Shown here piece after piece: positions 9,768 to 26,467 of a DNA stretch of 26,467 nucleotides (position 1 is its first letter; every line of letters begins with the position of its first letter). The DNA is taken from assembly GCA_046861395.1 (NCBI GenBank), contig JBHHUC010000027.1, positions 1 through 26,467 on the forward strand, in the 5' to 3' direction. The stretch is from Fidelibacterota bacterium. GTDB taxonomy: Bacteria; Fidelibacterota; Marinisomatia; Marinisomatales; JABMOV01. A program made the position numbers and the translations under genes. Below the pieces are notes generated by a model. It was not told the origin of the DNA. It made no database searches and worked only from the letters and a program-made list of their open reading frames with translations.

Positions 9768-10575
9768 TGTCTTTCATTCTTTCAAATACGTCGGCCCCCG
9801 AGACCTTGGTCTTGCCCGCCATCAGCATATCAATGATTAACTGGTGACATGATGTGACGATTTTACGGGGAAACCCCTTCGTTTTCTCATGAATAATCCG
9901 CATGGCATCTTCAGTAAATAAAGGATCATCCATATCGGCACCGGCTACAGATAAACGGTGTGAAATAAATGCGATGGTATCATCCAGATCCAACGGTCGT
10001 AAGGTATATCCGAAGGATATGCGGTCCCTGAAATTTTCATGCTTATTGAGCAATTCCTTGAATTCCGGTTGGGCAAAAATGATCACTTGAATTAATTTGG
10101 AATCATTGGTTTCAAAATTCAGCAACGTGCGGATAATTTCGAGCTGGGCACTGCCCATTTTCTGTCCTTCATCTATGACCAGTACAATACGACGATTACT
10201 GTGAATGGCCATATCGATGAGATAATGTTCAATCTTGTCCATCATATCCACCTGATGATTATGCGTCTGCTTGATGCCGAACATTTTCTGCAGATACATG
10301 AGGAATTCGAAATTATCCTTCCAGGTCGGATCGAGAATCAGATAAAACTTATAATCCTTTCCAAATTCGACGAAGCGCCCCAGCAACAGTCGCGATAATG
10401 TCGTTTTTCCCGTCCCGATCCCACCAATAACCACATTCAAGCCACGATTGAGTCGCAGCGAAATTTCCAAGCGGTTTAAACATTCACCATGACTTTTAGA
10501 CTGGTAAAAGAACTTGGGATCCGGAGCCATGGAAAAAGGCTCTTTTTCTAACCGAAGCAGTTCATAATAATCCAT
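9748..10575 (-). CDS. ExeA/GspA/MshM-family AAA ATPase (stand-alone, no peptidoglycan-binding domain)
   Basis: YYELLRLEKEPFSMAPDPKFFY..SH, Walker A GGIGTGKT, Walker B VLVIDEGQ, LLNFET..KLIQVIIFAQPE, ISHRLSVAG, TKGFPRKI. Confidence 0.92.
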   Translation of the reverse strand: MDYYELLRLEKEPFSMAPDPKFFYQSKSHGECLNRLEISLRLNRGLNVVIGGIGTGKTTLSRLLLGRFVEFGKDYKFYLILDPTWKDNFEFLMYLQKMFGIKQTHNHQVDMMDKIEHYLIDMAIHSNRRIVLVIDEGQKMGSAQLEIIRTLLNFETNDSKLIQVIIFAQPEFKELLNKHENFRDRISFGYTLRPLDLDDTIAFISHRLSVAGADMDDPLFTEDAMRIIHEKTKGFPRKIVTSCHQLIIDMLMAGKTKVSGADVFERMKDSDPFRV

Positions 10576-10598
10576 CGCTTATTTCCTGATAATGATGT

Positions 10599-11204
10599 TC
10601 ATTTTACCGAGTTTAAGTTCATCAAATAGGCATTGCAAAATTGCAGAATATCTTCCTCGGTCACCGGACTCTGTAGGACTTTATCAACCTGCAATTCCTT
10701 CAATTCGGATAAAATGCCATTCTCATAATTCTTTGTAATAACCAGGATGGGAAGATCCTGGAAAGATTTCTTGGAGCGGACCACTTTCAGGAATTCAATT
10801 TCGGATGTATCCCGTGATTTTAGGTCCATGATGATTAATCGTGGTGGAACCGGATGGACTTTCCGATAACCATCGAAACCATTGGAGGCGGAATCGATAT
10901 CGATTCCATTATACAGTCGCCGCAGTAATCCCTGGATTTCATCCAGCCGGACCGGATCATCATCAATAATCAACACATCGGCAGCATAATGTTTATCTCC
11001 AAAATAATAGGGATCATAAGTGAAGCCTTGTTCCGCCAGGAAAGAAATAAATTTTTCCCGTGTGATTCGATAATGACCCGAAGGAGTAGAAAACGCTTCC
11101 AGATTACCATGACGAATCCAGCGTTTTACCGTATTGACATCAACCTCACAATAGCGGGCCACATCACCGGTGGTATAAAATTTCTTTGGTTGCTTCGAAT
11201 TCAT
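10599..11204 (-). CDS. Response regulator with N-terminal BldC/excisionase-type (HTH_17, MerR-like) DNA-binding domain
   Basis: YTTGDVARYCEVDVNTVKRWIRHGNLEAFSTPSGHYRI is a BldC/Xis-type wHTH; receiver VLIIDDD...LIIMDL...VIT follows, with QSP in place of the conserved KP. Confidence 0.88.
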   Translation of the reverse strand: MNSKQPKKFYTTGDVARYCEVDVNTVKRWIRHGNLEAFSTPSGHYRITREKFISFLAEQGFTYDPYYFGDKHYAADVLIIDDDPVRLDEIQGLLRRLYNGIDIDSASNGFDGYRKVHPVPPRLIIMDLKSRDTSEIEFLKVVRSKKSFQDLPILVITKNYENGILSELKELQVDKVLQSPVTEEDILQFCNAYLMNLNSVK

Positions 11205-11396: not shown

Positions 11397-14300
11397 TTAT
11401 TTAAGGAGCATGAGCTTTTTAATAGCCGAATAAGATGGTGTCCGCAAACTCATAAGGTACATTCCGGCACTGACTGGTGAACCATCCCTGTTTCGTCCGT
11501 TCCATTTTATGGAATGAAATCCGGCAACTTCTTCCCGGTCCACCAGGCGTACTATTTCCTTCCCCAGGACATCATAAATTATAATCGTAACCCGGGTATC
11601 CTCCGGCAAATCGTAGTCAATTGTCGTGACTGGATTAAAGGGATTGGGATAGTTCTGCCGTAGAGCATAGGTGGCGGGAACCGGACGTTTGGTTTTTACC
11701 GTATAATAGGCATACGTCTGGAGCGAAGCGGTATTCGCCCCGTCACGTAAGTCACCGAAAAGATTGATTGTCGAATGCTCTCCCTGCAATCGCTCAAAGG
11801 TGATGCGTGCCAAAGCGGTTACCAAGTGCTCATCATCCGTTGCGGCTGCCGATTGGATAATCACATGGCCCGTTTCTTGGATATCTTTTTTCAGAAACAG
11901 CCATTGGGGCTCCAGGGCGGATTGAATAGATTCGACCTGCAACTCTTCCGGTTTATAATGGAGAGATAATGCAAATGCTCCGGCATCCAATGATGAATCG
12001 GTGAGGGCCACGGTAAGAATAAACCGGTTATCCGGTTCACCGGGTTTACGGTCGGGATAAGTGACGGAAACAGATAAATAATCATCATTTTCAATGGTTG
12101 ATCCCCGCGCCACGACTAGGTTACCATTATCCAGTGTCCAATTCCACATTTGGGCAAAAACCATCAAATCTTCAAAATCAAAACGGACATCGGGTTTAAC
12201 ATGAAAATAGGGGACCGTTCCCGTGACTGGCCCCACTTCCTGTTCCGGTAATACGGTATCCTGCATCCAGATATCCCGGAAGACCAGCAAATCTTCAAAA
12301 TTAATCTGATTATTTACATCATAATCGCCCAGGAAACGAACCGTGTAGACCAGATTCAATGTATCCTGTACACCGTCTGGATCATCGTTGAGGTTACCAT
12401 CGAACGGATTCCCGGCTTCATCCTGAAGGAGCGGAGAAAGATGTACGACGATTTGATCCCCGGCCGTCCACCCAGAGTCCGCCGCAATTTCAATGGATTG
12501 ATTCGTTCTGTTCCATTCAACCGTCGTATTGTAGGTTTCCCGGGTACCGGTAACCGTAACACCTGTCAGCACCGATAGGGAATCCAGAACCGACGACATG
12601 GTAATCATGATCGGTGACTGCCACAGTATGGGATCGTCCCCTGTATCAATAACATGAGGCAGGAATTCATTGTCTATATGAATTTGTATCGTATCTCCCT
12701 GACCGTATTCCCATTGGTCCTGCAAGGCAGCAGCGATGGTGATAATTGTATCCTGGTTAAATAAATCCGTTTCAGAATTCCAGCGAAGGTCCAACGTATA
12801 TTGATCCGACCCGATGTCGCTGATATCCTCATCTGGTACCAAAGGATTCCATACCGTTTGATCGTATGACCATGAGAAAGTTAATTGATAATGATCCTGG
12901 GTGGGATCCTGAATCTGGACGGGGATGGTGACAATCTGCGACATTTCCTCGAAGGGATCCAATGCCAATGTGAGATTCCCGACATGGTTATCCAAAATAA
13001 AAGGCCCGGTTACCATGTAATTTAATCCGATACCATCGAATGCAGTCACGCGAACAAAGACTTCGGTGGAATAACTGTCCCCCAAATCCATCTGGCTATC
13101 CCAGATTACCGTCACTGTATCAAGGCCGGGAATTCCGATCATATCCGACAGATACATCGGCTGCCAGGAAAGATTATCCACCATATATTCCCAGGTTATC
13201 TCTAGGGAATCCCCGTTGGCATCCAGAAACCAAGCTTGCACAATGACATCTCTGTGCTGCTCCGATTCCAAGGGAACTACATGGACTTCAGGCAATTGAT
13301 TATTTTGATTCATTCGAATGAAGATGGTCTGACGATCCGATAATTCCCCGTCCGACACAACGATTCGGAAGCTGGTATCGGTATGGAACGGTTCCGGGAC
13401 GCCAAACACCGAATCACCCGCGAGGGTACACCATGAAGGCAGATAATCCGCTGACCAGAACAGAGTTGAATCTTCTTGATCGATGGCAGTTCCGTGATAA
13501 ATAAAATATTGTCCGCTGTTGGCCTCAACCAGATTGCCGGAGGTAATGACCGGAGGATCATTGACGGGTGTTATATTGATGGTTACCTGCCAGGTCTGTG
13601 ACAGTTCACCATCACTTCCCGTTACAAAAAGGACTGTGTCCAAGTCCCCTTCTTCTGGTGTTCCATAGAGCGAGTCTGCCTCCACCACCGTCAACCAACT
13701 GGGTCTAACGGGAAAACTCCAGTTTATCATTGACCCTTCTGGATCAAATCCCGTGACACGGTAACCCACTGGACTATCTTCCATGGCGTATATATCAACC
13801 GCTGATGTCATGACCGGAGGGTCATTCACCGACAGGACCGTCAGATCAACAACCAGAGTATCGAGCAAAAAACCGTCATGGGTATACACGGTGAAACTGG
13901 TATCACTGTCCCCCTCGTTGGGCGTACCGAAAAGTGAATCAGCCGAGGCGGTCAGCCAGGTCGGGTAATCCACGAAAAACCAGGCATGAAATGAATTATC
14001 AGGGTCAACTACCTCACCCCGGTAAACATAGTACTCATCTTCCTGAGCGGTATCCTGGGCAGCAGAAACGATGACCGGCGGATCATTAATATAGTTGATA
14101 TGAACCGGGATGGTCAGTGAATCTGAAATCAATCCATCATCCACAACCAACCGGAAAATCGTATCACTGGCAAAATCATCCGGAGTACCGCTTATGGTCG
14201 CCCCGTTGGCATTCGTCCACCACGGATGAATATCATAATAATAATTTAATTGAGGATTGTCCACATCCACGGCTGACCCGGTGAAGGAAAACGGATTTTC

Positions 14301-16421
14301 TTCTATCAGAATAAAAGATGTATCATAGGGAAAGAACGGCGGATCGTTGACCGGGGTTACGGTAACGGTTAACGACAGGTTGGCACTGGCACCCAGCGGA
14401 TCTGTGACCTGCAACGGGAATGTTTCGGAAAAACCACTTGAATCAGGATCGGTAAAAAAGGTGATACTATGGTCTGGCTCATTGTAAACGGCAACTATTC
14501 TGTTCCCTGCCGGTATGGTAAATACAAGTGTTTCATCCGGGTCACTGTCATCACTGACCATGAGATACAGATCCAGAGTGAGACTATCATCTTCCAGAAA
14601 ACTTGTATCCGCCGCTGAGGTCCACACCGGAGCAGCATTGGGAATGACTGACAGAATTGCCGTGGAATCACTTTCATTGCCGGCACCATCACGAGCGGTA
14701 ATAAAATAGTAATATGTCTGACCGTTGGTGACGGCCGAATCTGTGTAGGTTGTGTCGGGATGAAGAACCATGGAGGGAAGTGGCGCAAACGCATTGGGTG
14801 TCAGCCCCTTATAAATGACATAGCTGGCAATATCAAATTCGGAATTCCCGTTCCAGGATAAGATAACCTCCAGATTGCCGCCCTGAGCCTGAAAATTCGA
14901 CGGCGTGGCCGGTGGAATAGCGTCGGAGCATTCTGTCAAATACACGTCCGTGTCCAGCGTAACAATATCCGTTTCAACCGTGATGGGTAGCGATACTCCC
15001 GATAAATCCATCGTATAATCACAGGAATCCTGGCCCGAACTAGGTGAACCATTCATATCAATGAAAGCACCGACAATATACCCGCTGTCAGGAATGAGAT
15101 TGGCAAAGGAATACAGGTAGGTCTGATTCACATCCAGATTGACCGATACCGGTACTTTTTCCAGGTCCGGGGAATCCAGATCGGGATCCGATCCAGGAAA
15201 CCAGCAGGATAGGTACAGCATTCCGCTGATCGGTCGGGTGGCAATAATATTCCCCTGAATGGCTCCGTTCCCTGATTCGAATACACTGATGTAACCCTGG
15301 CTGTCATCACTGGATTGATTGCCAAATGAATCAATAGCCGTCACGCGAAACTGGGTGTATTCCAGGGGCCCCATCGGTGCCACAACGGGCTCCACGCCAT
15401 CGTTGGCAATCGGACCGGTTTGATCGGTGAAAAAGTCTCCGATCTGTGGCGACAATGATATATGAATGGGATAGGTATCGAATGATTCATCCCATGCCGA
15501 CCACTGCACATCTACCGGCGTCATTTCCAGAATGGCTTCACCGCCGTCGGGTGTCAGGAGATCCACGCTGGGATTAGTGGCATCCACGATGATCTGATCA
15601 CTAAGTCCTAGATACTGCGCCGTCGTATCCCCGGTTCCGGCATTTCCTATTCGGAAATATCCCTCACTGAAATCGGCACTTTTATTTCCGAAGGAATCTT
15701 TGGCGAATACTGCCAGACGGGCAAAACGGGTATCAATAACGGGTAGGAAAATTTGAGCGGTTCCCGTATTACTAGTGCTGTCCAGCAAAGGATTCACAAA
15801 ACCGCCAATTGTTTCCATCAGTCCAATATCAATGGGGTTGGAACTGAAACTTTCATCCTGAGCATTAAATAAAACGGTTATTTCCTCACCAGGAGTGAAG
15901 ACTTCGCCGCCGTCAGGAGAATTCAGCATGAGTAACGGATCATTGGCATCAACGGTTACCGGAGATGACATTCCGCTGAAGATGGAGGTTGTATCGATAC
16001 CACCTCCCGTAGTGCCAATGGAAATATATCCCAGGGACGCATCTTCAGCCACGTTGCCGAAGGCATCCATGATTTTGATTTTCATACGAAAATAATTGGT
16101 CGATACGGAAGGCGTTGTAAGATTAATGCTCCCCGAATTGGGCAGATTGGATGCCAGCAGAACAAACTCGCCGCCGATTTCAGTCGCATATTCGGCCGTA
16201 ACCGGATTATTTGCGAATCCTTCATCCCCGGCATTCCAGACACAGGTAATAACATCACCGTTCTGGTAAATTTCTCCGCCATCGGGTGCTGTCAGATCGA
16301 TCCAGGGATCATTGGCATCAACCGTAAAAACAGCCGATGTTCCGACAAAGACCGCCGATGAATCGGTCTGCGCCTGAGAGAAGGCAAACAACAATAATAA
16401 TATGGGTGAGACCCGTTTCAT
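11397..16421 (-). CDS. Giant secreted surface protein/adhesin: 3 Ig-like PDGGE repeats, FN3, 5 cadherin-like repeats, 2 Ig-like domains, SbsA-like Ig, dockerin-like, cohesin-like, Por/T9SS-type CTD (FlgD-Ig)
   Basis: Signal peptide MKRVSPILLLLFAFSQA|Q; FN3 PPATP...LSW...SYVIYKG...YTD...NGQTYYYFITARDGAGNES; repeated VNDPP...P.W; GDYDVNNQINFEDL; C-terminal YALRQNYPNPFNPVTTIDYDLP...IYDVLGKEI...WNGRNRDG..VSAGMY...KKLMLLK. Confidence 0.9.
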   Translation of the reverse strand: MKRVSPILLLLFAFSQAQTDSSAVFVGTSAVFTVDANDPWIDLTAPDGGEIYQNGDVITCVWNAGDEGFANNPVTAEYATEIGGEFVLLASNLPNSGSINLTTPSVSTNYFRMKIKIMDAFGNVAEDASLGYISIGTTGGGIDTTSIFSGMSSPVTVDANDPLLMLNSPDGGEVFTPGEEITVLFNAQDESFSSNPIDIGLMETIGGFVNPLLDSTSNTGTAQIFLPVIDTRFARLAVFAKDSFGNKSADFSEGYFRIGNAGTGDTTAQYLGLSDQIIVDATNPSVDLLTPDGGEAILEMTPVDVQWSAWDESFDTYPIHISLSPQIGDFFTDQTGPIANDGVEPVVAPMGPLEYTQFRVTAIDSFGNQSSDDSQGYISVFESGNGAIQGNIIATRPISGMLYLSCWFPGSDPDLDSPDLEKVPVSVNLDVNQTYLYSFANLIPDSGYIVGAFIDMNGSPSSGQDSCDYTMDLSGVSLPITVETDIVTLDTDVYLTECSDAIPPATPSNFQAQGGNLEVILSWNGNSEFDIASYVIYKGLTPNAFAPLPSMVLHPDTTYTDSAVTNGQTYYYFITARDGAGNESDSTAILSVIPNAAPVWTSAADTSFLEDDSLTLDLYLMVSDDSDPDETLVFTIPAGNRIVAVYNEPDHSITFFTDPDSSGFSETFPLQVTDPLGASANLSLTVTVTPVNDPPFFPYDTSFILIEENPFSFTGSAVDVDNPQLNYYYDIHPWWTNANGATISGTPDDFASDTIFRLVVDDGLISDSLTIPVHINYINDPPVIVSAAQDTAQEDEYYVYRGEVVDPDNSFHAWFFVDYPTWLTASADSLFGTPNEGDSDTSFTVYTHDGFLLDTLVVDLTVLSVNDPPVMTSAVDIYAMEDSPVGYRVTGFDPEGSMINWSFPVRPSWLTVVEADSLYGTPEEGDLDTVLFVTGSDGELSQTWQVTINITPVNDPPVITSGNLVEANSGQYFIYHGTAIDQEDSTLFWSADYLPSWCTLAGDSVFGVPEPFHTDTSFRIVVSDGELSDRQTIFIRMNQNNQLPEVHVVPLESEQHRDVIVQAWFLDANGDSLEITWEYMVDNLSWQPMYLSDMIGIPGLDTVTVIWDSQMDLGDSYSTEVFVRVTAFDGIGLNYMVTGPFILDNHVGNLTLALDPFEEMSQIVTIPVQIQDPTQDHYQLTFSWSYDQTVWNPLVPDEDISDIGSDQYTLDLRWNSETDLFNQDTIITIAAALQDQWEYGQGDTIQIHIDNEFLPHVIDTGDDPILWQSPIMITMSSVLDSLSVLTGVTVTGTRETYNTTVEWNRTNQSIEIAADSGWTAGDQIVVHLSPLLQDEAGNPFDGNLNDDPDGVQDTLNLVYTVRFLGDYDVNNQINFEDLLVFRDIWMQDTVLPEQEVGPVTGTVPYFHVKPDVRFDFEDLMVFAQMWNWTLDNGNLVVARGSTIENDDYLSVSVTYPDRKPGEPDNRFILTVALTDSSLDAGAFALSLHYKPEELQVESIQSALEPQWLFLKKDIQETGHVIIQSAAATDDEHLVTALARITFERLQGEHSTINLFGDLRDGANTASLQTYAYYTVKTKRPVPATYALRQNYPNPFNPVTTIDYDLPEDTRVTIIIYDVLGKEIVRLVDREEVAGFHSIKWNGRNRDGSPVSAGMYLMSLRTPSYSAIKKLMLLK
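13305..14640 (-). repeat. Five tandem cadherin-like/He_PIG Ig repeats (~88-97 aa) in the giant protein
   Basis: Units start NAAP/NDPP and carry E(D/E), DPD/DVD/DPE/DQE, P.W...GTP and V.DG motifs; boundaries approximate. Confidence 0.8.
15279..16364 (-). repeat. Three tandem ~122-aa Ig-like repeats at the N-terminus of the giant protein
   Basis: Each reads D(S/T)(S/T)....G.S....VDA.(D/N)P...L..PDGGE...(W/F).A.DE.F...P...D(A/S)FGN...D.S.GY(I/F); starts at 16364, 15995 and 15629. Confidence 0.88.
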
Positions 16422-16424
16422 GAA

Positions 16425-17618
16425 TTACTGCCGGGTTTTCCTTTTACTCGCCTTATTCTGTTTTAATAAATATTTCGCCCGTGCGGTGCTAATGTCACGG
16501 ACACAGCGGAAACCCTTATCACGTCTCGAATAATTTGGCTGCTCAGACCATCGTCTATAGGATTGAATATCCCACTGGTTATGGTTGAAGGCACCGGACC
16601 GCCAGATTCGTCTGGAAGGTTCGTTTTGATCCCATGTAACTGTCCATTCCTTGACATTCCCGGCCATATCATAAGCGCCAAAAGGGGAAGGACTGTCCGT
16701 AGTTTGAAATCCATTATAATTCTGACCATTGTAAAATCCCACGGGTGTCGTGGCAAAGATGTCCCAGTTATCACCGCCCTCCCACGGGTCACCACTGTAT
16801 CGATAGTTGGCATTACTACTATCAATCACGTCCCCCCAGGGATATTCCCAGCCGGTCGTATCGCGGGCTGCCTTTTCCCATTCTTCTTCCGTCGGCAATC
16901 GCAAACCGTAATAGGATGCAAATTTATAGGCTCCAAACCAGGTTACTCCCGTTACCGGATGATTACCGTATCCTTCGTCGACAATGAAAGTTGTTCCATT
17001 CCAGTGGATCCGGCTTTCCCAACGGTAATGAAGGGAATAGTTTCCTGGGCCATAATGTTCATCACCGGCATAAAAACCCTGGACTTCATCCCCCCCATTC
17101 ATCCAGACAACACCGGCATCAAGGGCATCAATCAAAAAAGCGGCATATTCGGCATTGGTTACTTCAAATTGCATGATTTCATAATCGTAGGAAATATTGC
17201 GAATTTCATCATTATTACCGTAGGTAAAATTCCCGGCGGGAACGACGACGAAGGAAAAAGGTACATCTATAAAACGACCGGTGGCGATAACCTGAATAAC
17301 GGTTTGGTCACTATACATTCCCCCATATTCCGATCCCAGAAACCATTCGATATGTTTACCCGGTCCGGCGACAATCCCATCGCCAATGTCACCGGTTGCG
17401 TGTGAGGTATTTGTAAAGGAAACACCACCGTCAAAACTGATTTCCAGTGATACGGAAAAGGTGGTAAAAGTAATATCTTCACCCAGATCGTAATATATAT
17501 CCACAATCTTGGATCCATCGGTGCGCTGGGCGGCAGTTACATTTGTCACCGAAGCAGTCTGGGCGGATAAAAGTGCAACGCTAATCAATGCTAATAGAAT
17601 TCGGGTCATGATCTTCAT
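16425..17618 (-). CDS. Secreted FGE-sulfatase (SUMF1-like, C-type lectin fold) protein with N-terminal Ig-like domain; probably non-catalytic
   Basis: Signal peptide ...LLSA|Q; VTNVTAAQRTDGSKIVDIYYDL domain; FVVVPAGNF, EVTNAEY, HPVTGVTW, RLPTEEEWEKAAR, YPWG, FGAYDMAGNVKEW, GFRCVR. The FGE catalytic Cys pair after the RGG(S)-like motif is absent. Confidence 0.9.
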   Translation of the reverse strand: MKIMTRILLALISVALLSAQTASVTNVTAAQRTDGSKIVDIYYDLGEDITFTTFSVSLEISFDGGVSFTNTSHATGDIGDGIVAGPGKHIEWFLGSEYGGMYSDQTVIQVIATGRFIDVPFSFVVVPAGNFTYGNNDEIRNISYDYEIMQFEVTNAEYAAFLIDALDAGVVWMNGGDEVQGFYAGDEHYGPGNYSLHYRWESRIHWNGTTFIVDEGYGNHPVTGVTWFGAYKFASYYGLRLPTEEEWEKAARDTTGWEYPWGDVIDSSNANYRYSGDPWEGGDNWDIFATTPVGFYNGQNYNGFQTTDSPSPFGAYDMAGNVKEWTVTWDQNEPSRRIWRSGAFNHNQWDIQSYRRWSEQPNYSRRDKGFRCVRDISTARAKYLLKQNKASKRKTRQ

Positions 17619-17640
17619 AATATTTCCCGTGTTAATGTGT

Positions 17641-18567
17641 TCATGGTTGCCAAATGGATATGGTACTGTTCTGGATCAACAACAGTTGATCTTGATTCAA
17701 GGTGTTTCGCAGGGCCGATTCAGGTAATATTTCCACTTCACTAATTCCGGAAGTACCGATATGTTTCAGGATTATACGGACGACTTCGCCGGATCCGCTG
17801 ATACCGTTTCCCACCCCGGAGGTCAGCGCAATATTGATGGAAAACAGACCATTCGTACTGTCCATATCAACCAAGGTAAAATCGGTTACATTGTCCGCCA
17901 GATTTTGCAGTAGGAAGCTGCCGGAATCAGCTTGGAGCAGATATTGCTGCAATACAAATTGTTGAGGGTCAAAGTGTATCCTGGCATAGATGCCCATTAA
18001 ATCGACTACATCAATGGCATTCAGAGATAACGCTATGACCTGATTCACATTCATATTTGCATTACCAGGCGATAGGATCAGGCCAGGACCCTGTAGCGCA
18101 TCTACTGAAAAACGACGATAGGGCCAGGAATTTTCCTGAAATCCGGTGGGATAGGAAGCCCGGACCTCAAACCAGTATTCTCTGTCTTCCAATCCGCTCA
18201 GGGTGAAGGTATGGATACCGGTTGTGGTATCAAACGTCCAATAGGGCAGGGAATCAGCTAAAACATCAAACCCGTCAACAGGATTGGACCAGGCACTGGA
18301 ATTAATCCGATAGGAATAGGCAACCCCGGCGGCGATCTGGTATCCTGCGGAATCTGACGGCCAGTAATTCGAGTGGGCATGACGCCACTGGAATGTCGTT
18401 TCAGTTTGATTAATGGTGGAGCCAGTAGCCGGGCCGGCAAGGATTTCCGTCTGTGGTGGTTGAAACAACGGATCTTCTGGGTCAAAGGGATTTTCAATGG
18501 TCCCGAATATTTCAAATGAATTACATCCTGCACCATAGGCGATTAACAGGATGACTATCCATTTCAT
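17641..18567 (-). CDS. Lipoprotein with Ig/FN3-like domain and C-terminal cohesin-like domain (alternative start 18594)
   Basis: MKWIVILLIAYGAG|C lipobox then NPFDP; C-terminal VIALSLNAIDVVDLMGIYARIHFDP..F.L...ISGSGEVVRIILK...SEVEI...LRN is cohesin-like. Confidence 0.75.
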   Translation of the reverse strand: MKWIVILLIAYGAGCNSFEIFGTIENPFDPEDPLFQPPQTEILAGPATGSTINQTETTFQWRHAHSNYWPSDSAGYQIAAGVAYSYRINSSAWSNPVDGFDVLADSLPYWTFDTTTGIHTFTLSGLEDREYWFEVRASYPTGFQENSWPYRRFSVDALQGPGLILSPGNANMNVNQVIALSLNAIDVVDLMGIYARIHFDPQQFVLQQYLLQADSGSFLLQNLADNVTDFTLVDMDSTNGLFSINIALTSGVGNGISGSGEVVRIILKHIGTSGISEVEILPESALRNTLNQDQLLLIQNSTISIWQP

Positions 18568-18601
18568 ATTGAAAATTCTCGGTTCCCCTTTCATAATGTA
18601 T

Positions 18602-18644
18602 AAAATACTTATGATATTGAATTTATAGCGTGATGCTTCTCACA
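18602..18644 (-). promoter_or_regulatory. CRP-like box with class II promoter geometry
   Basis: Minus strand AATTGTGA-GAAGCA-TCACG (core 18644-18629), then 21 nt, then TATTTT (18607-18602, TAnnnT), placing the box centre at -41.5 for a TSS at 18595. Confidence 0.65.
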
Positions 18645-18645
18645 A

Positions 18646-21141
18646 TTATTTGGCGGTCAGGGTCCAGGTTCCATCCCAGTCATCTCCGGGTGGATTTTCC
18701 TTCAGATGCTCACAGCGGGTAATATACACCGTGGAAGGATTCAGGCTGCGGCCCGGGAACATGTCTTCCAGTTTTTCCGCTTTCCTGAACAGCTTCAGTG
18801 CCTCATCCCAGCGTTGGGCGAAGTAATGTTCCTGACCGGCATGGAAAATATCCAACAGTTCCTGATTCTGTTCCGAAAGTTTCCCCTTCTCCGCCAATAA
18901 TTCATATGTTTTCACCGGAATGGTTTTCCCCTTTACGCGAACGTTATCCAGAAAACGATATTCAAGCTGGTCTTTGGTGGCTTCATAGATTTTTTCTGCT
19001 ACCTGGATATAGACGCCATATTGTTTGGCGGAGGATTCAAGTCGGGCGGCCAGATTGACGGTATCACCCATCATCGTATAATTCATCCGCATTTCTGAAC
19101 CCATGTTCCCCGTTACCATTTGTCCGGCATTCAGACCGATGCGATGCTGCATGGCATATACGATATCGGGCCAGTCTCCTTCACTGCGCCATCTTTCCCG
19201 CAGTTCGCCCAGCTTTTCATTCATTTTAAGGGCCGCCATGCAGGTGAGGTATTCCTGATCTTCCACCGGCATGGGCGCCCCCCAGAAAGCCACGATAGCA
19301 TCACCGATATATTTATCCAATGTCCCCCTGTGATCCAGTAGAATTGTGGTCATTTCGGTCAAATACTGGTTCATCAGACTAACCATCTTTTCCGGCTCCA
19401 AGACCTCCGAGAAGGAGGAAAAACTCTGAATATCAGAGAAAAAGGCAGTATGATACCCTGATTCGCCTCCCAACTTCGGCTGTTGTTTTTGTTCGTACAT
19501 CTGATCTATCAAATCGGGGGAAATGTAGGTACCAAAGGTAGATTTCAAGAATTTCTTATCCCGTTGTTCCACAATAAACTTGTAAATCACATTGGAGGTA
19601 TACGTGAACAGAATACCCGCAATGGGAGCGACAATGGGAATCATGATACCTTCCCCGGGCGCAGGTAAGGCCGAATAAAAGAGATCACCATGACTGATAA
19701 CGAATTTTTCAGGAAACAATCCCCGACCGATATACCGTAACGTCCAGAACAGATCATTGGTAAACAGGCCGCAAGCCACGCCGAAATACACGATTCCCTC
19801 GAAGAAAACCAAGATTCCCGCCCAGACCGGATTCATATATGATAACATGACAAAGGCCAGTAAACAAAGCAATCCGGTTAAAAGACTGTGGGACAACAAA
19901 ATCGAGAACGTATTCGTGTCGAGGCGGAGGTCGGTTAACCGGGTACCAAACACATTGATAAAATTGTTATGCAAGATCGTTTGAATGGCATTGGCGTGGG
20001 TTTCCACTCCTGGCGTTAATTGCTGCAAACCAAAATAATTGTAGAATGGTGTAGATTTTGTATCATGCAAAACTTCCACTGCCACACCGATCAGGACAAT
20101 TTTATTATAAAATGGAGATGCGGTAATATCGAAATCAGCGCCCAGCCCCATCATGGCAATCATCTCCTGCCGCTCATCCGGGTCGGGAATCGCTTCAATC
20201 CATTCGGGAATGGATCCAGGAATAAACTGACTCATCCAGTCAATATCCTCTTCCGGATTGCTCAGTTCAACTTCATCGGTATCAATGATATATGCCAGGG
20301 AATAGCGGGGAAAAGTTCCCCACGGTGGGAAATTCTGTGTTGAAGGAATTTTATATCCTGATGGCGGACCGTAATAATTCACTAAAAAACTATTGGTCGC
20401 ACCATAGGCTTGAATGTGCAAGGGTCCGTAAGTCCAGATCAGCGTTTCTGGCTCAAACCGGGGAATCAGGGTGTCCGGTAAATCCAGGAAAGCCTTGGCC
20501 GATTCCATGGCAATCGTCATGAGTGCTTTATCCGGTTGATGATCCAAGGCTGTAAATATTTGATACTGGCGTGAAAATAAATCCACATCAAGTAGATCAT
20601 TAATCACGCCAATTTCCGGATCAACCTGCATAATGGCATCAGAGGGATTGGCCAGATATTGTGGTGGGATCCGTGTGGCCTCCTTGGCCACTTTGGCCGA
20701 TAGAATAACCGTAGTGCCCCGCTCACGAGCCTCAGTAATAGCCCGAGCGATGGCTTCATCCCCATCCTTGGGCGAATCAAACTGGATATCGAAAGCAATC
20801 ACTTTCGCCCCTGCTTTGGACAAGTGTTCGATAGTTTTGGCCCAAACGACCCTGGGATATGGCCATTCGTTCCATTTGGGATTTTCAGATGGCATTAACC
20901 GATAGGCTTCATCATCAACCTCAACCAGAACCACATCCATTCCCCGCTTTAGATAAGTCGAATCCGCTGCGCGCCAACCTGTCAGGGGACCACGGACGCT
21001 GTGAAACCTGAAATCATAGGTTTTCAGTTCCGTAACATCGAAGAGCCCTATCCAATGCAGCAGAGCCGTAGCCAGAATCGACCCTAGGGTAAGCAGCAGA
21101 GCCACACCATGAGATTTAAAATATTTTCTTACTTTTTCCAA
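18646..21141 (-). CDS. CHASE2-domain membrane class III adenylate cyclase
   Basis: N-terminal TM, CHASE2 (ELKTYDFRF..RGP, VVLVEVDD, WPYPR..WA, GAKVIAFDI.F, KIVLIG, PGVETHANAI), TM helices, cyclase FSDIQSFS, DKYIGDAI (Lys, ATP-specifying), YTMMGDTVNLAARLE, VKGK, TPR-like tail ...WDG.W.LTAK. Confidence 0.95.
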   Translation of the reverse strand: MEKVRKYFKSHGVALLLTLGSILATALLHWIGLFDVTELKTYDFRFHSVRGPLTGWRAADSTYLKRGMDVVLVEVDDEAYRLMPSENPKWNEWPYPRVVWAKTIEHLSKAGAKVIAFDIQFDSPKDGDEAIARAITEARERGTTVILSAKVAKEATRIPPQYLANPSDAIMQVDPEIGVINDLLDVDLFSRQYQIFTALDHQPDKALMTIAMESAKAFLDLPDTLIPRFEPETLIWTYGPLHIQAYGATNSFLVNYYGPPSGYKIPSTQNFPPWGTFPRYSLAYIIDTDEVELSNPEEDIDWMSQFIPGSIPEWIEAIPDPDERQEMIAMMGLGADFDITASPFYNKIVLIGVAVEVLHDTKSTPFYNYFGLQQLTPGVETHANAIQTILHNNFINVFGTRLTDLRLDTNTFSILLSHSLLTGLLCLLAFVMLSYMNPVWAGILVFFEGIVYFGVACGLFTNDLFWTLRYIGRGLFPEKFVISHGDLFYSALPAPGEGIMIPIVAPIAGILFTYTSNVIYKFIVEQRDKKFLKSTFGTYISPDLIDQMYEQKQQPKLGGESGYHTAFFSDIQSFSSFSEVLEPEKMVSLMNQYLTEMTTILLDHRGTLDKYIGDAIVAFWGAPMPVEDQEYLTCMAALKMNEKLGELRERWRSEGDWPDIVYAMQHRIGLNAGQMVTGNMGSEMRMNYTMMGDTVNLAARLESSAKQYGVYIQVAEKIYEATKDQLEYRFLDNVRVKGKTIPVKTYELLAEKGKLSEQNQELLDIFHAGQEHYFAQRWDEALKLFRKAEKLEDMFPGRSLNPSTVYITRCEHLKENPPGDDWDGTWTLTAK

Positions 21142-21149
21142 TTATCCCA

Positions 21150-23924
21150 TTAAAATCGGTAACCAAGTGAAAGTAGGATTCCCGAACTATTCAATTCCCA
21201 CGATTCCAGGAATTCATCCGTTTTTCCATTCTGATCATTATCAATTTTATCCCGGTTGAATACCGGTGTATGCAACCACCGGAAATTAGCAGATAAATTT
21301 GCCACTAGGTGTTCAATTATTTCATAATCACCTCCGATTTTAAACCCATATAAACTTGAATTTATATCTCCTTGACTGGCCATCCAGTCCAATCCGCCGA
21401 TCAAACGCAGTTTATTCCCCCAGATGGGATAGGTCCCATTTAACGCCACCATCATCCATAAGTAGGGTTTTTTCACGATCTCACCCTTGGTGTTGAAGGT
21501 TGGCAGTTCCAGTTCTGTGAGACTGGTGGAAATGACCGTTCTCAGCTCCGAAGCAAAACGACTGCTCATATTGATGCCATAGGCACGGGTATCCGTTTTA
21601 GGAAAAAGATAATTCCGGCGACGATCATTGGCAAAATTATCCACACTCCGTATCGTGTTGAAATTGATGACAATGTTATGTGATGATGTTGGCAGTGTGA
21701 TCGGATAATTCAGAGACATTGTGGTTTGGAGACTGGTGGAATTCTCCCTCAAATCGATGGGCGTTCCCGCCACTTTTTCGATTTCGGTCTTTTCGTTATC
21801 CTTGTTGATGGATTGAAAATTGAACATGAGCGAAGGGGCGTCCATGCCCGGCATTATACTCATGCTGGCGGAAAAGGTATTGGTATTCAAAGGGTCGGTT
21901 TGAGTCCGTAGAATTTTATTGTCCCGATGCTGATAACTCACCGCTATGAGAATCTTATTATCCAGCAATTTTATCCTGTTTTTCATGGTGAATTCTCGGA
22001 CATTGCTGGAAAGATAGGGATTTCCCAACGATACAAATTCGGGGCCTACCTGATAATATTCAATGGAAAAGGAATTGAAATAATAATTCCCAATCAGCCG
22101 GAGGGCATAGGCTGACGAAGGCATATTAACGATGGTTGCAACCGGGGATTTTTGGAAGGAAGCGATGTCCAGCGGTACCAATGGCGTCATATATTGATTG
22201 ACCGTAAAAAATTCTTCATATTTCGTTGGGTTGATCAATGCGGCTGTATCTACCATCAGGCCGCCGGCGATAACCAGTCCGTTTTCATCATATTCAACAC
22301 CGATCAGTCCGTCGAGGCTGTCATCCAGGGCCGTATCCAATTCAGTCAATGTCAGCGCTCCGTCCCAGATATTGCGATTATACAGACTCATATTCCAGTC
22401 CAGTTCAATACGGAGTTTATTCTGATCGAAAATCCCGGCCATTTCAAATCCGACAACAAAGTTATCTTCCGGGTCCCCTCCGCTCCATTTGGAATCGGGT
22501 AAATCCACACTGCCGCCCATGGCCGAAACCGCGTCGCGGAAGGATGTATAAGTATATGTTCCGGGAGTAACAAGGGTATCAGCGGTAAAGGTGGCCGAGG
22601 CAGGTAGAATGCGGTCAATACTGGCCCGGTCATCCATGGCCTTGATGGCATGCAGTCCCAGGGAAAATCGTTTAATGGGTTGAATTTTTAACTGGTAAGC
22701 TTTGATCGATCGCTCAAATGTGTACCCGGTACGGTCCAGGGGAAAGATATAATTTCCCAGTGTATCTGTTCGGATATCACTGGGATAGAACACATATCCC
22801 TCATCTTTTTTTCCACCCCACTGAACAGATTGATTTATAATTCCCGAGACGGAGTAGAACTTAATCCAGGGCAGTCGAATATTTACACCCAAACCCCGGA
22901 TTCGCTTACCATCAACGGTGAAAGCATTGAAACTGGGAAAATAGTCCCCCATATTGATGGATAAATAATCGCCGAAGCCCAAACTCAGGGAAAGGCGGTT
23001 GTACGGTTGTTCATAGGGACTTTCCCGCGTGGAAAGGCGGACCTGGGCATCGGCCCCGATCCAAGTAACGCCGACTTCAACCTTACCGGATAGTTCAGAA
23101 TAATTCAAGGTCGTTCCGCTGTTGTATTCCAGAGATGAGCGGGATGATATTTCGCCGCTGTACAGTAATTGTTCCTCCAGATTAAAACCTGATTTCACGG
23201 TGGTGAAGGACCACGCCACCGGTTCAATGGGAACACCATAGACAGAAGACATGGTTATGGTAACCGTATGAGGTCCCGGTTCAAGGTAATCAGGGAGTGT
23301 ATTGATAATTCCTCCGGCCACCAGCGTCCGGTCCGTATAGGAAATCCCATCGATGGTCACTTCGATAGTCGAAGAGTCCACAAACGGTGCATGAAAGAAA
23401 GACGCCGCCACCACAATATCTTCAGGTGGGATTGCGCTACCCGGTTCCGGCGCAAGAATCAATAATTCGGCCTCCATGGCCTGTGTAGCGGCATACTGGT
23501 CTGAGCCGGGAAAACGACGACCCTGCTCAGGGATTTGCTTGGCAGGCACAAATTGGGGATTTTCCAGCGGTGAATCGGCCGGGTAACCAATGGTGCCACT
23601 ATCGTGGGTCAAGATGACAATGGCATATTCAATTCCATCGGATGATATTTTATGTCCCGGGATGGTTCCTTCCCATGACAGGCCGGTGGACCGCATGGGA
23701 ATTTCCTGATAACTGTGATTGCCCCGGGTGCGGTAAAATAAGGTTGCCGAGCGGGCATTTTCCGCTGTAAACGTGGAAACGGTTATGACCTGATCGACTC
23801 CGGGAGTGACCCAGTCCGGTGGATTATGAAATAGAGGGGACTCTGTTTGGCCCTGCAGACCGACTTCGAGGATGCCGATGAGGAGCAGAACCCATCGTAT
23901 AGTGAAAGACCGTCCCGTATTCAT
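21150..23924 (-). CDS. Predicted outer-membrane beta-barrel protein with N-terminal periplasmic Ig-like domains
   Basis: Signal peptide; Ig-like LFHNPP...LFYR...Y.EIPM...WEGTIP...IEYAI; many alternating amphipathic strands; BAM-type C-terminus LLSLGYRF. Confidence 0.75.
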   Translation of the reverse strand: MNTGRSFTIRWVLLLIGILEVGLQGQTESPLFHNPPDWVTPGVDQVITVSTFTAENARSATLFYRTRGNHSYQEIPMRSTGLSWEGTIPGHKISSDGIEYAIVILTHDSGTIGYPADSPLENPQFVPAKQIPEQGRRFPGSDQYAATQAMEAELLILAPEPGSAIPPEDIVVAASFFHAPFVDSSTIEVTIDGISYTDRTLVAGGIINTLPDYLEPGPHTVTITMSSVYGVPIEPVAWSFTTVKSGFNLEEQLLYSGEISSRSSLEYNSGTTLNYSELSGKVEVGVTWIGADAQVRLSTRESPYEQPYNRLSLSLGFGDYLSINMGDYFPSFNAFTVDGKRIRGLGVNIRLPWIKFYSVSGIINQSVQWGGKKDEGYVFYPSDIRTDTLGNYIFPLDRTGYTFERSIKAYQLKIQPIKRFSLGLHAIKAMDDRASIDRILPASATFTADTLVTPGTYTYTSFRDAVSAMGGSVDLPDSKWSGGDPEDNFVVGFEMAGIFDQNKLRIELDWNMSLYNRNIWDGALTLTELDTALDDSLDGLIGVEYDENGLVIAGGLMVDTAALINPTKYEEFFTVNQYMTPLVPLDIASFQKSPVATIVNMPSSAYALRLIGNYYFNSFSIEYYQVGPEFVSLGNPYLSSNVREFTMKNRIKLLDNKILIAVSYQHRDNKILRTQTDPLNTNTFSASMSIMPGMDAPSLMFNFQSINKDNEKTEIEKVAGTPIDLRENSTSLQTTMSLNYPITLPTSSHNIVINFNTIRSVDNFANDRRRNYLFPKTDTRAYGINMSSRFASELRTVISTSLTELELPTFNTKGEIVKKPYLWMMVALNGTYPIWGNKLRLIGGLDWMASQGDINSSLYGFKIGGDYEIIEHLVANLSANFRWLHTPVFNRDKIDNDQNGKTDEFLESWELNSSGILLSLGYRF

Positions 23925-23962
23925 AAAAGAATTTTATGGGAATATCCGTACGGAAAAAAGGC

Positions 23963-24643
23963 TTATTGATACTCAATAACCAGTGTTTTTATTGTTCCGT
24001 TTTCATCCTCAAATTCTATCCGTAGGGTGGATGTGCTACCTTCTTCCGTTTCTTCAGGGTCTACCGGGATATTGGAAGGGTTCGATTGTTCAATCATCAG
24101 GGACCCATCCAGTAATGATACGCCTGTCAAACCGGCCGTGACATCCTGGGTCAGGCCACTGATTATATTTGTCAGACTAACAACGCCTTCCATTCCGAAT
24201 AACTGATCACCACTCTGCGGGTCGGAAACAAACCAGAAATCCGTTCCTTTGACCGATGCCACCGATGTCGGGGTCTGGATAGTGAATTCGGTTTTTTTCT
24301 GTTTTTTGATCTTGGCCCGTACCGTTCCGGCTTCCATATTTACTTTTTTAGCAATAGTAGTGGCGGATCGTTTTCCGCTGATTTCTACTTCCGTATTATT
24401 GCGGACTTTCAACGCCGATTTATCATCGATAAATATTAAAGCAGCGAAACCATTAGCACCGGTCCGGATATAATCACCATTTTCCAGGACCGTTCCCGGT
24501 TTCAGATTAACATACTCCGCATCGGGAGCAGAACGTTTAACCTCTGCTTTTCCCAGAACCTTTGTGGTAATGGCAATTTTACTTCCGGCCATGATTAGGG
24601 ATGTCATAAGAAACAGCATCAGGACAGTCCATTTTTTCATCAT
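23963..24643 (-). CDS. Secreted/periplasmic FecR-domain protein
   Basis: Signal peptide; G.VLENGDYIRTGANGFAALIFIDDKSALKV..NTE, GTVRAKI, FTIQTPTSVASVKGTDF, EGVVSL. Confidence 0.9.
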   Translation of the reverse strand: MMKKWTVLMLFLMTSLIMAGSKIAITTKVLGKAEVKRSAPDAEYVNLKPGTVLENGDYIRTGANGFAALIFIDDKSALKVRNNTEVEISGKRSATTIAKKVNMEAGTVRAKIKKQKKTEFTIQTPTSVASVKGTDFWFVSDPQSGDQLFGMEGVVSLTNIISGLTQDVTAGLTGVSLLDGSLMIEQSNPSNIPVDPEETEEGSTSTLRIEFEDENGTIKTLVIEYQ

Positions 24644-24645
24644 GA

Positions 24646-25812
24646 TTAATCCTCCACCCTGATGTTTTTTACAATGACATTTTGATTGACGATTTGATTT
24701 AGAATAAATGCTACGCTGGATTGGTCAGCCGAAACATTATTGATGGAAAAGATACCTGTTGGAATAAAACCGTCCAATGCCGATCCCGGTCCGAATATTC
24801 CAGTAAATTGATCATCACCCAGTGCCTGTTGCAACATTTGCAAGGTAGGATCGACCGTGGCGGTATTGGATGTACCCGCCATATCGGCAATCTTAAAGGC
24901 ATTAATGGAAGACAATAACTCTTCCTGGCCGGCCGTTGTTGTGAGCGTTTGCCTGATTTGCCAGACATATACACGACCGAATTGCAGAGGACGTGCACCT
25001 GATAAAGGATATTGATAACTATTAAAACTACCTAATGGCTCCCAGGATGAGCCACTGTTGAATGGCAATGACAAATCATCTTCTATTGCTTCATCAACGG
25101 AAGAATGTACCCCCAGTTTGAATTCCGCCAGACGAATATAATTTTCACAACCGGCACAACTCTCAGAATGCCAGTTAAAAATGGGATATGTCGTATAGAC
25201 CATGTTGGACAAAGTATCTACCAGGGCACCACCCGGGGATTCCAGTGAAATGGACACCGGGGAATGAATGACAATTTCCTTAGTTTCATCGTCTGTTAAG
25301 GAAAGATTATTGGAATTTGCCCCAGACCACAGTTTTATGGTAAAAGTATAGGTTCCGTCAGCCAGTTTCCCACTGGTGACGATGGAACTGAGGATCGCAT
25401 CAAATTCGGCGGGGTTCATCATATCGAGGATTTGGCCATGAATCTCAATGGGAGTATTGTTCAAATCATAGATGACTGTAGTTTCCCGGGATAGGTCCCG
25501 GCTGCTCAGACGAACCTGATTATTGATTTGAAAAGGAGTCGTTTCCAGCTCTACGATGGTGGTAGGGTTATCGATCCCCAGACTGGGTGAGATCATTTCA
25601 CCTTTGAAGTATAATTTGACAAAAACGGGATAGCTGTCAGAGGATATTGTATAATCAAATAGTTGTACCTGGGAGGACCCCGTTTGCAAGTCAAAACTAC
25701 TTATATAATAGGTCGCATATTCATAAATCTGACCTTGCAATGTAGCCGTTTGTGCCTGAGCCGGTACGGCACCGGTAAAAAATAAACACAGAATTAGAAT
25801 TGCTTTCTTCAT
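24646..25812 (-). CDS. Secreted hypothetical protein with Ig/FN3-like (DUF928-reminiscent) domain; start reassigned to ATG 25812
   Basis: Signal peptide MKKAILILCLFFTGAVPAQA|Q preceded by purine-rich GAAAGAGAG; LADGTYTF, ISLESPG...YPIFNW...YQYP..GARPLQFGRVYVWQI. Confidence 0.7.
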   Translation of the reverse strand: MKKAILILCLFFTGAVPAQAQTATLQGQIYEYATYYISSFDLQTGSSQVQLFDYTISSDSYPVFVKLYFKGEMISPSLGIDNPTTIVELETTPFQINNQVRLSSRDLSRETTVIYDLNNTPIEIHGQILDMMNPAEFDAILSSIVTSGKLADGTYTFTIKLWSGANSNNLSLTDDETKEIVIHSPVSISLESPGGALVDTLSNMVYTTYPIFNWHSESCAGCENYIRLAEFKLGVHSSVDEAIEDDLSLPFNSGSSWEPLGSFNSYQYPLSGARPLQFGRVYVWQIRQTLTTTAGQEELLSSINAFKIADMAGTSNTATVDPTLQMLQQALGDDQFTGIFGPGSALDGFIPTGIFSINNVSADQSSVAFILNQIVNQNVIVKNIRVED

Positions 25813-25836
25813 TGGTCTCTCTTTCAATTGTCTTGA

Positions 25837-25865
25837 AATTTAACGGATCGATCTTTCAGACACAA
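25837..25865 (-). promoter_or_regulatory. Candidate sigma70-type promoter for the signalling module
   Basis: Minus strand TTGTGT (25865-25860), 17 nt, TAAATT (25842-25837), about 25 nt before the ATG at 25812. Confidence 0.45.
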
Positions 25866-25890
25866 CCAGTATTGACAAGGAGTCGGAACA

Positions 25891-25906
25891 CGTGAAATAA
25901 GTCACA
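25891..25906. promoter_or_regulatory. CRP-like box
   Basis: Plus strand CGTGA-AATAAG-TCACA (minus strand TGTGA-N6-TCACG), 9/10 match to the TGTGA-N6-TCACA core. Confidence 0.55.
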
Positions 25907-26070: not shown

Positions 26071-26107
26071 ATAAAAAATAAGCCCTCTGAATTGCTTCAA
26101 AGGGCTT
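26071..26107 (-). terminator. Rho-independent terminator of the rRNA operon
   Basis: Minus strand AAGCCCTTTGAA-GCAA-TTCAGAGGGCTT (12-bp stem with one G-U pair, GNRA loop) followed by ATTTTTTAT, just after the 5S gene. Confidence 0.9.
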
Positions 26108-26113
26108 GAAAGG

Positions 26114-26233
<120 letters not shown>

Positions 26234-26279
26234 AAAAGTTTTTTGGAAATTGATGCCTCGATTCATAAAAATGAAAAAT

Positions 26280-26467
26280 TGATAAAGCCGTTCGACATAT
26301 TAGTACCACTCGGCTGAATGCATTACTACACTTACACCTGTGGCCTATCAACGTTGTAGTCTTCAACGAGTCTTATTACCTAATGGTAGGGAGATCTCAT
26401 CTTGGGATAGGTTTCGCACTTATATGCTTTCAGCGCTTATCCTTTCCGAACATAGCTACCCAGCGAT
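26280..26467 (-). rRNA. rrl: 23S rRNA, 3' end (partial)
   Basis: Plus strand ...ATTAGTACC...CTTACAC...GCCTATCAACG...ATGCTTTCAGCGCTTATCC...TAGCTACC is the reverse complement of the conserved 23S 3' region; 3' boundary approximate. Confidence 0.96.

Follow-up and report, generated by a model that had tools for sequence, protein, structure and literature searches.

The closest described counterpart of the locus analyzed here is a cyclic AMP (cAMP) pathway of Sinorhizobium meliloti. As the excerpted text of three reports describes it (PMC13001267, PMC7529298, PMC5498481), the pathway comprises NsrA, the CHASE2 cyclases CyaK, CyaD1 and CyaD2, and the regulator Clr, whose targets include the FecR-domain protein SMc02177. 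A second described case, the BiofilmReg operon of Burkholderia, encodes a response regulator, a LysM-FecR protein, a CHASE2 histidine kinase and a DUF4136 protein, according to the excerpted account in PMC5192318. Here, we analyze a stretch of 26,467 nucleotides (nt) from a Fidelibacterota bacterium (GenBank assembly GCA_046861395.1, contig JBHHUC010000027.1, positions 1 to 26,467), referred to below as the window. It carries an operon of Ig-like protein, FecR protein, outer-membrane barrel and putative CHASE2 adenylate cyclase (the sensor operon, g18 to g15), followed by a module for a giant surface protein (the adhesin module, g14 to g12); each is headed by the same CRP-type palindromic box. 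We favor, at odds slightly better than even (roughly 0.55), a reading in which a cAMP-CRP circuit couples an envelope-spanning sensor to the display of the giant surface protein.

The two modules and their control elements are arranged as follows:

25891-25906, minus strand: CRP-type box 1, an exact match to TGTGA-N6-TCACG, 79 nt 5′ of the g18 start codon
25837-25842, minus strand: TAAATT, beginning 49 nt past box 1, a candidate −10 hexamer for transcription of the sensor operon
24646-25812, minus strand: g18, 388 residues, secreted tandem Ig/FN3-like protein
23963-24643, minus strand: g17, 226 residues, exported FecR-domain protein
21150-23924, minus strand: g16, 924 residues, large outer-membrane β-barrel protein
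18646-21141, minus strand: g15, 831 residues, inner-membrane protein with a CHASE2 domain and putative class III adenylate cyclase
18629-18644, minus strand: CRP-type box 2, an exact match to TGTGA-N6-TCACG, starting 1 nt past the g15 stop codon and heading the adhesin module
18602-18607, minus strand: TATTTT, candidate −10 hexamer of the g14 promoter, starting 22 nt past box 2
17641-18567, minus strand: g14, cohesin-like lipoprotein
16425-17618, minus strand: g13, secreted FGE-sulfatase-domain protein (PF03781, 120.6 bits)
11397-16421, minus strand: g12, 1674-residue modular surface protein, cargo of a type IX secretion system (T9SS)

An earlier reading of the same DNA (the original prediction) had listed these genes and two TGTGA-N6-TCACG boxes as parts of a candidate undescribed system. 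Every gene it listed is present on the minus strand in the order it gave, and both boxes are exact matches at the places it named. Genes within the operons are tightly spaced, with gaps of 3–38 nt or overlaps.

In the proposed circuit, a cue at the cell surface would, by analogy, be relayed by the g16 barrel and the g17 FecR protein to the CHASE2 domain of g15, whose cyclase would then make cAMP, as judged from its catalytic residues. A CRP with an RETVSR recognition helix, encoded elsewhere in the genome, would bind the two TGTGA-N6-TCAC(A/G) boxes; its gene, the boxes and their conservation are observed, and binding is what they predict. From a class II position (about −41.5), CRP would activate the module of cohesin-like lipoprotein, FGE-like protein and giant T9SS cargo, and from a class I-like position it would feed back on the sensor operon. 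The pilus operon that follows the adhesin module is outside the circuit.

The FecR-CHASE2-cyclase-CRP logic of this circuit is its known part. According to the three reports on S. meliloti, the NsrA/CyaK/Clr pathway likewise has a β-barrel in the outer membrane, a FecR domain, CHASE2 cyclases in the inner membrane and a regulator of the CRP family, which activates exported proteins encoded beside a cyclase; the term “undescribed system” is therefore an overstatement. What is new is the barrel, the Ig protein, the unlinked crp gene, the operator, the T9SS output and the rRNA/porX neighborhood. An S. meliloti plasmid record holds, directly upstream of a CHASE2 cyclase, a gene for a 1209-residue protein with FecR, TPR and C-terminal parts, which we infer to be NsrA from its size, architecture and position. 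The g16 barrel profile aligned to this protein with an hhalign probability of 0.03%, and tblastn with g16 gave no match in the plasmid records. The window barrel is not detectably homologous to its S. meliloti counterpart, is larger, and has Ig-like N-terminal domains instead of FecR and TPR. FecR is a separate protein in the window but fused in S. meliloti, and an extra tandem-Ig protein is encoded here; the crp gene is unlinked, the output is a T9SS cargo module, and the host belongs to a marine phylum of the FCB group. The operators differ as well, the Clr site being TGTT-N8-AACA, whereas the boxes of the window are of the classical TGTGA-N6-TCACA type.

Two further systems share parts of the sensor. 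In the FecA-FecR-FecI system, as in the window, a periplasmic FecR domain is found beside the gene of an outer-membrane barrel; in contrast to that system, no Plug or TonB-dependent receptor family is detected in g16, no extracytoplasmic function (ECF) sigma factor gene is adjacent, and the FecR protein is short and exported. The Burkholderia BiofilmReg operon has in common with the window an exported FecR protein encoded beside a CHASE2 sensor with control over a surface or biofilm phenotype; as excerpted, its description gives a histidine kinase and response regulator as the output, no barrel, and a LysM domain on the FecR protein (PMC5192318).

Part of the evidence for the proposed circuit comes from the boxes. 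We compared the window with 47 related loci, the nearest in its own family and the most distant elsewhere in its phylum, and accepted as a box in these relatives any site within one mismatch of TGTGA-N6-TCACA. By itself, the number of boxes in the window is not significant: shuffled sequences contained on average 1.43 sites within one mismatch, and 42 of 100 contained at least two. Comparative evidence decides whether the boxes exceed chance. When 270 nt around the cyclase stop codon were searched, box 2 was found in 14 of the 16 loci with a g14 orthologue next to the cyclase and in none of the 30 loci without g14 (Fisher p = 5e-10, for loci that are kin and so non-independent). The two g14 loci without box 2, L032 and L106, have no intergenic gap at this junction. 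Across several families, box 2 starts 3–65 nt past the cyclase stop codon.

Of the relatives’ loci, 46 extend 300 nt or more upstream of g18, and box 1 is present there in 23 of them; 19 of 24 sites are located between −62 and −100 from the start codon. Counted over 48 related loci, the density of boxes is 1.2 and 1.4 sites per kilobase (kb) in the two promoter windows; the remainder of these 718 kb has 0.031 per kb, which equals the random expectation. The half-sites are kept, and the six spacer bases are free to vary. Thus, both boxes of the original prediction stand as conserved cis-elements, at a density far above background.

The placement of the boxes resembles that of CRP activator sites, as both are phased to −10-like hexamers. 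In each of the 14 box-bearing g14 promoters, TAnnnT starts 22 nt past the box, leaving a 21-nt spacer, and any other offset occurs at most three times. If this hexamer is the −10 element, box 2 would be centered at about −41.5, the class II CRP arrangement established for E. coli. Its position in the window, 18602-18607, makes the ATG at 18567, rather than that at 18594, the likely start of g14. Of the 24 g18 promoters with a box, 10 have TAAATT at +39 to +41, and another 6, the window included, have it at +49/+50. The spacing between box 1 and TAAATT in these 16 of 24 loci falls into two classes about one helical turn apart, which would center box 1 near about −60 and −69, as at class I sites, if the candidate −10 hexamers are taken as reference. 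TAAATT is also present in 16 of the 24 loci lacking box 1, which indicates that the g18 promoter exists with or without the box. Among the 58 sites within one mismatch in the genome, the g14 promoter alone has class II geometry. A wider class II regulon was considered and rejected: the 741 sites at two mismatches yielded just 4 more candidates, about the chance level.

The regulator expected to read these boxes is encoded at G000:C36, unlinked to the operon. The genome has five cyclic nucleotide (cNMP)-binding frames and two Crp/Fnr-type regulators; the one at G000:C36 consists of a cNMP_binding and an HTH_Crp_2 domain. Its RETVSR recognition helix and an FGE..RSA cassette are invariant in 30 of 30 orthologues, and strong orthologues were found in 35 of 40 relatives. 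The protein is likewise missing from the two families that have neither the cyclase nor the barrel. The nearest solved relatives are GlxR, Mycobacterium tuberculosis CRP, Thermus CRP and E. coli CAP, and Vfr is also among the solved relatives. The CRP homolog with an R-E-x-x-x-R helix on which the original prediction had counted is thus present. Helices of this type read the TGTGA half-site, as established for E. coli CRP.

We consider it very improbable that the palindromes are not CRP sites and instead bind another regulator or act as structural elements of RNA or DNA. Such an explanation could draw on the second Crp/Fnr-family protein, encoded at G000:C65, and on the fact that CRP binding is deduced from sequence features, but it fits poorly with half-sites that are conserved around a free 6-nt spacer, with a stem that would have just 5 base pairs, and with the fixed phasing to a −10-like hexamer. 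Moreover, the half-site is the one read by R-E-x-x-x-R helices, and the paralogue at G000:C65 is without that helix.

Across the genome, TGTGA-N6-TCACG occurs exactly at six sites, only two of which are intergenic on a crude map of open reading frames, and these two are the boxes of the window. Sites within one mismatch are about threefold denser in non-coding DNA (12 of 58 in 7.7% of the genome, with non-coding calls that rest on the same map). The genome’s sole perfect TGTGA-N6-TCACA palindrome is located at G000:C8:38979-39116 (L078), with a second site 122 nt away, upstream of a 421-residue DUF11 surface-repeat protein at a contig end. A further intergenic box is found upstream of a TonB-dependent receptor gene.

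These additional sites bear on an explanation in which the boxes are true CRP sites of a general cAMP-CRP regulon, reporting for example the nutritional state, while g15 is not the specific input and the adhesin module occupies a permissive gap between the cyclase and porX. The boxes upstream of the DUF11 surface protein and the TonB-dependent receptor agree with this view, as do the unlinked crp gene and a second CHASE2 cyclase in the genome; in addition, the whole region is syntenic, housekeeping genes included, so that the conserved order is no proof of function. We nevertheless regard a general regulon as an unlikely explanation. In several families the module is inserted at one shared junction, immediately behind the cyclase stop codon with its box 3–65 nt beyond, the sensor operon is itself boxed in 23 of 46 loci, and no site within one mismatch in the genome other than that of the g14 promoter is of the class II type.

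In the sensor operon, the g18 protein has a signal peptide and is modeled by AlphaFold2 as tandem β-sandwiches with a predicted local distance difference test (pLDDT) score of 74. Its Foldseek matches are sandwich proteins of the Ig/FN3 type, including CfaB pilins and the CupB6 tip adhesin; no Pfam family is assigned to it, and neither its profile nor that of g16 has a significant match among solved structures. The g17 protein contains a FecR domain (PF04773, 50.5 bits, E = 2.9e-13) behind a leader-like hydrophobic segment at residues 7–25 and has no cytoplasmic anti-sigma part. Its counterpart in a class-level relative (L087, 7185-8111) has 309 residues, compared with the usual ~226.

In the AlphaFold2 model of g16 (pLDDT 82), two N-terminal β-sandwiches precede a barrel at residues 254–924, and the C-terminal Y-x-F is invariant in the alignment. 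The Pfam scan assigned no family to g16 and found no TPR, Plug or TonB_dep_Rec domain. By fold, g16 best matches MtrB (Z 18.3), followed by the FimD usher (Z 17.1); porins score nearly as high, and all these matches are generic (TM-score 0.2–0.36). Because MtrB, usher and porin matches score close together, g16 is named here only a large outer-membrane barrel. Its family is represented in 145 of 201 sampled genomes of the phylum and by 531 cluster representatives at E of 1e-30 or better; among the 13 cluster representatives listed, none carries a name or a Pfam domain.

The g15 protein combines a CHASE2 domain (PF05226, 117.5 bits) with a Guanylate_cyc domain (PF00211, 80.8 bits, both by Pfam). 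Four transmembrane-like segments flank CHASE2, an arrangement in which CHASE2 would lie outside the membrane and the cyclase domain would face the cell interior. The catalytic domain most resembles that of Pseudomonas aeruginosa CyaB (3r5g, E = 3.3e-34), and at the aligned positions it has the metal-binding Asp residues together with Lys and Thr at the substrate positions. In class IIIb adenylate cyclases, Lys and Thr at these positions specify ATP; the catalytic residues thus suggest that g15 is an adenylate-type cyclase. A complex prediction for the FecR protein (residues 22–226) and the periplasmic domain of CHASE2 (residues 35–395), made with alignments, scored 0.01 and weighs neither way on their binding.

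The genome contains two further modules with FecR. The first (L086, G000:C84:15845-22979) is a paralogous trio without a cyclase, composed of a 419-residue Ig-like protein, a 225-residue FecR protein and a 770-residue barrel; next to it is the gene of a 900-residue, T9SS-sorted M43 peptidase, and ~4 kb beyond that is the start of sprA. Second barrel matches suggest that a paralogue of this type is common in the order. The other (L083, G000:C96:15000-18400) consists of a 251-residue FecR protein and a 761-residue CHASE2 cyclase, directly after a T9SS cargo gene whose open frame of 5095 residues runs off the contig start.

The cyclase-less trio, beside a T9SS-sorted M43 peptidase and ~4 kb from sprA, is among the observations that would suit a different role for the Ig, FecR and barrel proteins, namely that of a device for assembly or secretion at the outer membrane, either like an usher or as an accessory of the T9SS, with g18 as its substrate or subunit and the CHASE2 cyclase sensing alone. 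Barrel fold matches that include the FimD and PapC ushers (Z 14–17), g18 matches that include CfaB pilins and the CupB6 tip adhesin, and porX following the cyclase in 26 of the 30 g14-less loci are further points in its favor. We judge this role less likely even than a general regulon: the fold matches are generic, at TM-scores of 0.2–0.36 with porins nearly as high, a chaperone gene is lacking, unrelated bacteria also pair FecR domains with CHASE2 sensors, and the trio is followed by the cyclase in 27 of 27 loci.

The adhesin module begins with g14, a lipoprotein with a Cys15 that is invariant in the alignment, an FN3-like part and a cohesin-like C-terminal domain. All six of its profile matches in the PDB are cohesins, each of them weak (E = 0.019–0.036); Atlas features scored 0.94–0.97, structural comparison with a PF00963 cluster gave TM-scores of 0.69/0.79, and Pfam itself detects no cohesin in g14. 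The g13-type FGE gene is optional, being found behind g14 in 6 of 16 loci. The original prediction had called g13 a lectin-fold protein, a fair gloss of its PF03781 match, since the FGE fold is C-type-lectin-like. A giant open reading frame always follows g14 in the relatives, sometimes with the FGE gene between them. The window’s giant, g12, contains Cadherin_4 and Big_9 domains and ends in a type A T9SS sorting domain at residues 1591–1671 (PF18962, 31.8 bits, cut-off 27; TIGR04183, 33 bits, cut-off 23). T9SS machinery is encoded in the genome, with SprA at 574 bits and 55 matches to the sorting C-terminal domain.

By eye, g12 residues ~1330–1590 (11652-12434) contain two short acidic repeats reminiscent of dockerins and, after them, a segment similar to the cohesin-like region of g14. 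Neither Pfam nor a regular expression found a dockerin in g12 or g13, and a Pfam scan of g12 residues 1330–1590 that allowed E values as high as 10 was likewise empty. Aligned to these residues by hhalign, the g14 profile gave E = 0.0057 with a probability of 6.5%, and we claim neither a dockerin nor a second cohesin in g12. In one relative (L045, 9341-10106), the box and g14 are kept and are followed only by remnants, 48 N-terminal residues from the FGE protein and 59 C-terminal ones from the giant, and then by porX, which looks like a deletion of the module body.

Several points weigh against the proposed circuit. Box 1 is absent from half of the loci, including two of the three closest relatives (L028 and L029), so feedback on the sensor operon is not universal. 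The locus counts overstate independence, the loci being kin. In the genome as a whole, sites within one mismatch are not over-represented (58, compared with ~70 expected from base odds). The −41.5 and about −60/−69 positions are derived from candidate −10 hexamers. Three further cNMP-binding proteins and the second FecR/CHASE2 cyclase pair mean that neither the source nor the reader of cAMP is unique, and the trio without a cyclase weakens the interpretation of the Ig, FecR and barrel proteins as a sensor. Giants of the relatives also carry β-helix and ConA-like lectin domains, and the label “adhesin” is suggested by domain content. Finally, signal passage, cAMP synthesis, CRP binding and activation are all steps that we infer.

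To assess how the modules are embedded in the genome, we examined gene order in loci picked by a cyclase or barrel match. The order g18-g17-g16-g15 is found in 20 of 20 order-level loci and, at the level of class or phylum, in 7 of 7. The sensor operon is ancient in the phylum. The window contains the following features upstream of it:

26279-26467, minus strand: 3′ end of 23S rRNA (Rfam match)
26115-26232, minus strand: 5S rRNA (Rfam match), directly upstream of the sensor operon
26080-26107, minus strand: strong terminator-like hairpin (terminator scan)

The sensor operon is located directly downstream of 23S-5S, in the same orientation, in 5 of 5 sources (the window, L040, L087, L089 and L103); in L087, the upstream 23S match is a 3′ fragment only. 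In many relatives the contig begins ~0.3–1.3 kb ahead of g18, which is what breaks in assembly at the rRNA operon would produce.

Downstream of the cyclase, the order varies with the presence of g14. In 26 of the 30 loci without g14, the next gene is porX (for example, L035 8203-9765), identified by its REC and PglZ domains and by NF052313 (633.7 bits, cut-off 300). In four g14-bearing loci, porX follows the giant gene. In the genome analyzed here, porX is found on contig G000:C123 (19486-21039; full-length by tblastn, 694 bits), still followed by tsaE and tsaB. From these positions we read the adhesin module as an insertion that varies between lineages, lies between the cyclase and porX and carries its own box. 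The region is syntenic as a whole, including the housekeeping genes after porX. The synteny of modules supposed in the original prediction thus holds for the sensor operon (27 of 27 loci), but not for the adhesin module, which varies between lineages, or for the pilus genes, which adjoin it in two loci only.

The neighborhood of porX invites comparison with the PorXY-SigP system of Porphyromonas gingivalis. The likeness is that porX directly follows the cyclase in the relatives and that the regulated module ends in a T9SS cargo; the difference is that porX is on another contig in this genome. In the excerpted text of PMC9757075, P. gingivalis PorX did not cleave cAMP. A literature search for a link between PorX and a cyclase found none, the matches to adenylate cyclase being, by their titles, apparent two-hybrid uses. 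A search for a Marinimicrobia adenylate cyclase returned no paper on this locus.

The last part of the window to be considered is the pilus operon:

7245-11204, minus strand: pilus operon including the g11 regulator (Pfam), with a 192-nt AT-rich gap separating g12 from g11

Its genes encode a PilM-like protein, PilO, a secretin, two PilT proteins, PilD and PilB; no pilin gene was recognized in the window. The operon is headed by genes for a regulator with HTH_17 and REC domains and for an AAA_22 ATPase, the latter resembling the PEP-CTERM-associated ATPase (189 bits, below the cut-off). The PilM-like protein has 840 residues, and its PilM match is confined to residues 293–626. The original prediction had placed a retractile pilus next to the adhesin; a link of the pilus to the circuit is not supported, in view of adjacency confined to the family (2 same-family loci of 20), the lack of a box in the operon’s own AT-rich promoter region, and porX occupying the same position in relatives. 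The junction between g12 and the pilus operon is a family-specific rearrangement, and we rejected CRP control of the pilus operon, both the box and synteny being absent. We also considered g11, which has HTH_17 and REC domains, as a cyclase-linked regulator and rejected it: its median score against the regulators that follow the cyclase in relatives is 30 bits, those regulators share a median mutual identity of 65.5%, and their true orthologue in this genome is porX.

The pilus is also where the window departs from the CyaB-Vfr pathway of P. aeruginosa. The two have in common a CyaB-like catalytic domain, a CRP-family reader and a concern with surface behavior. In contrast to CyaB, whose sensor is its own membrane domain and not CHASE2, the window cyclase has a CHASE2 sensor; in addition, the adjacency to pilus genes is unconserved, the pilus promoter has no box, and Pfam identified no Chp chemosensory genes in the window.

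A broader view extends the circuit to the phylum Marinimicrobia (SAR406). There, a trans-envelope cAMP switch with a FecR-CHASE2 core, an unrelated larger barrel and a tandem-Ig partner, encoded beside the rRNA operon and porX, would determine the timing with which giant T9SS surface proteins are displayed. We put this forward tentatively, as a possibility we rate clearly below the circuit proposed for the window. If true, the replacement of one barrel family by another would show that FecR-CHASE2 is a general adaptor for different outer-membrane receivers. This would bear on what CHASE2 domains sense, called unknown in the Pfam text quoted in the excerpted part of PMC5192318. The one studied CHASE2 case links the domain to an outer-membrane receptor; that the same logic returns, with a barrel that is not homologous, in a remote marine phylum with hardly any cultured members speaks for a design of general use and against a peculiarity of rhizobia. 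The conserved neighborhood of the cyclase and porX hints at a connection between cyclic-nucleotide signaling and type IX secretion.

For organisms without genetics, the analysis yields the prediction that cAMP-CRP turns on a T9SS surface-protein module, supported by the co-variation of box and module, the fixed 21-nt spacer to a −10-like hexamer and the invariant recognition helix. This prediction bears on how cells attach to particles and how carbon is turned over in the dark ocean. If the phylum-wide view is true, the switch would be what decides on attachment to particles in a lineage that ranks among the most abundant of the deep ocean.

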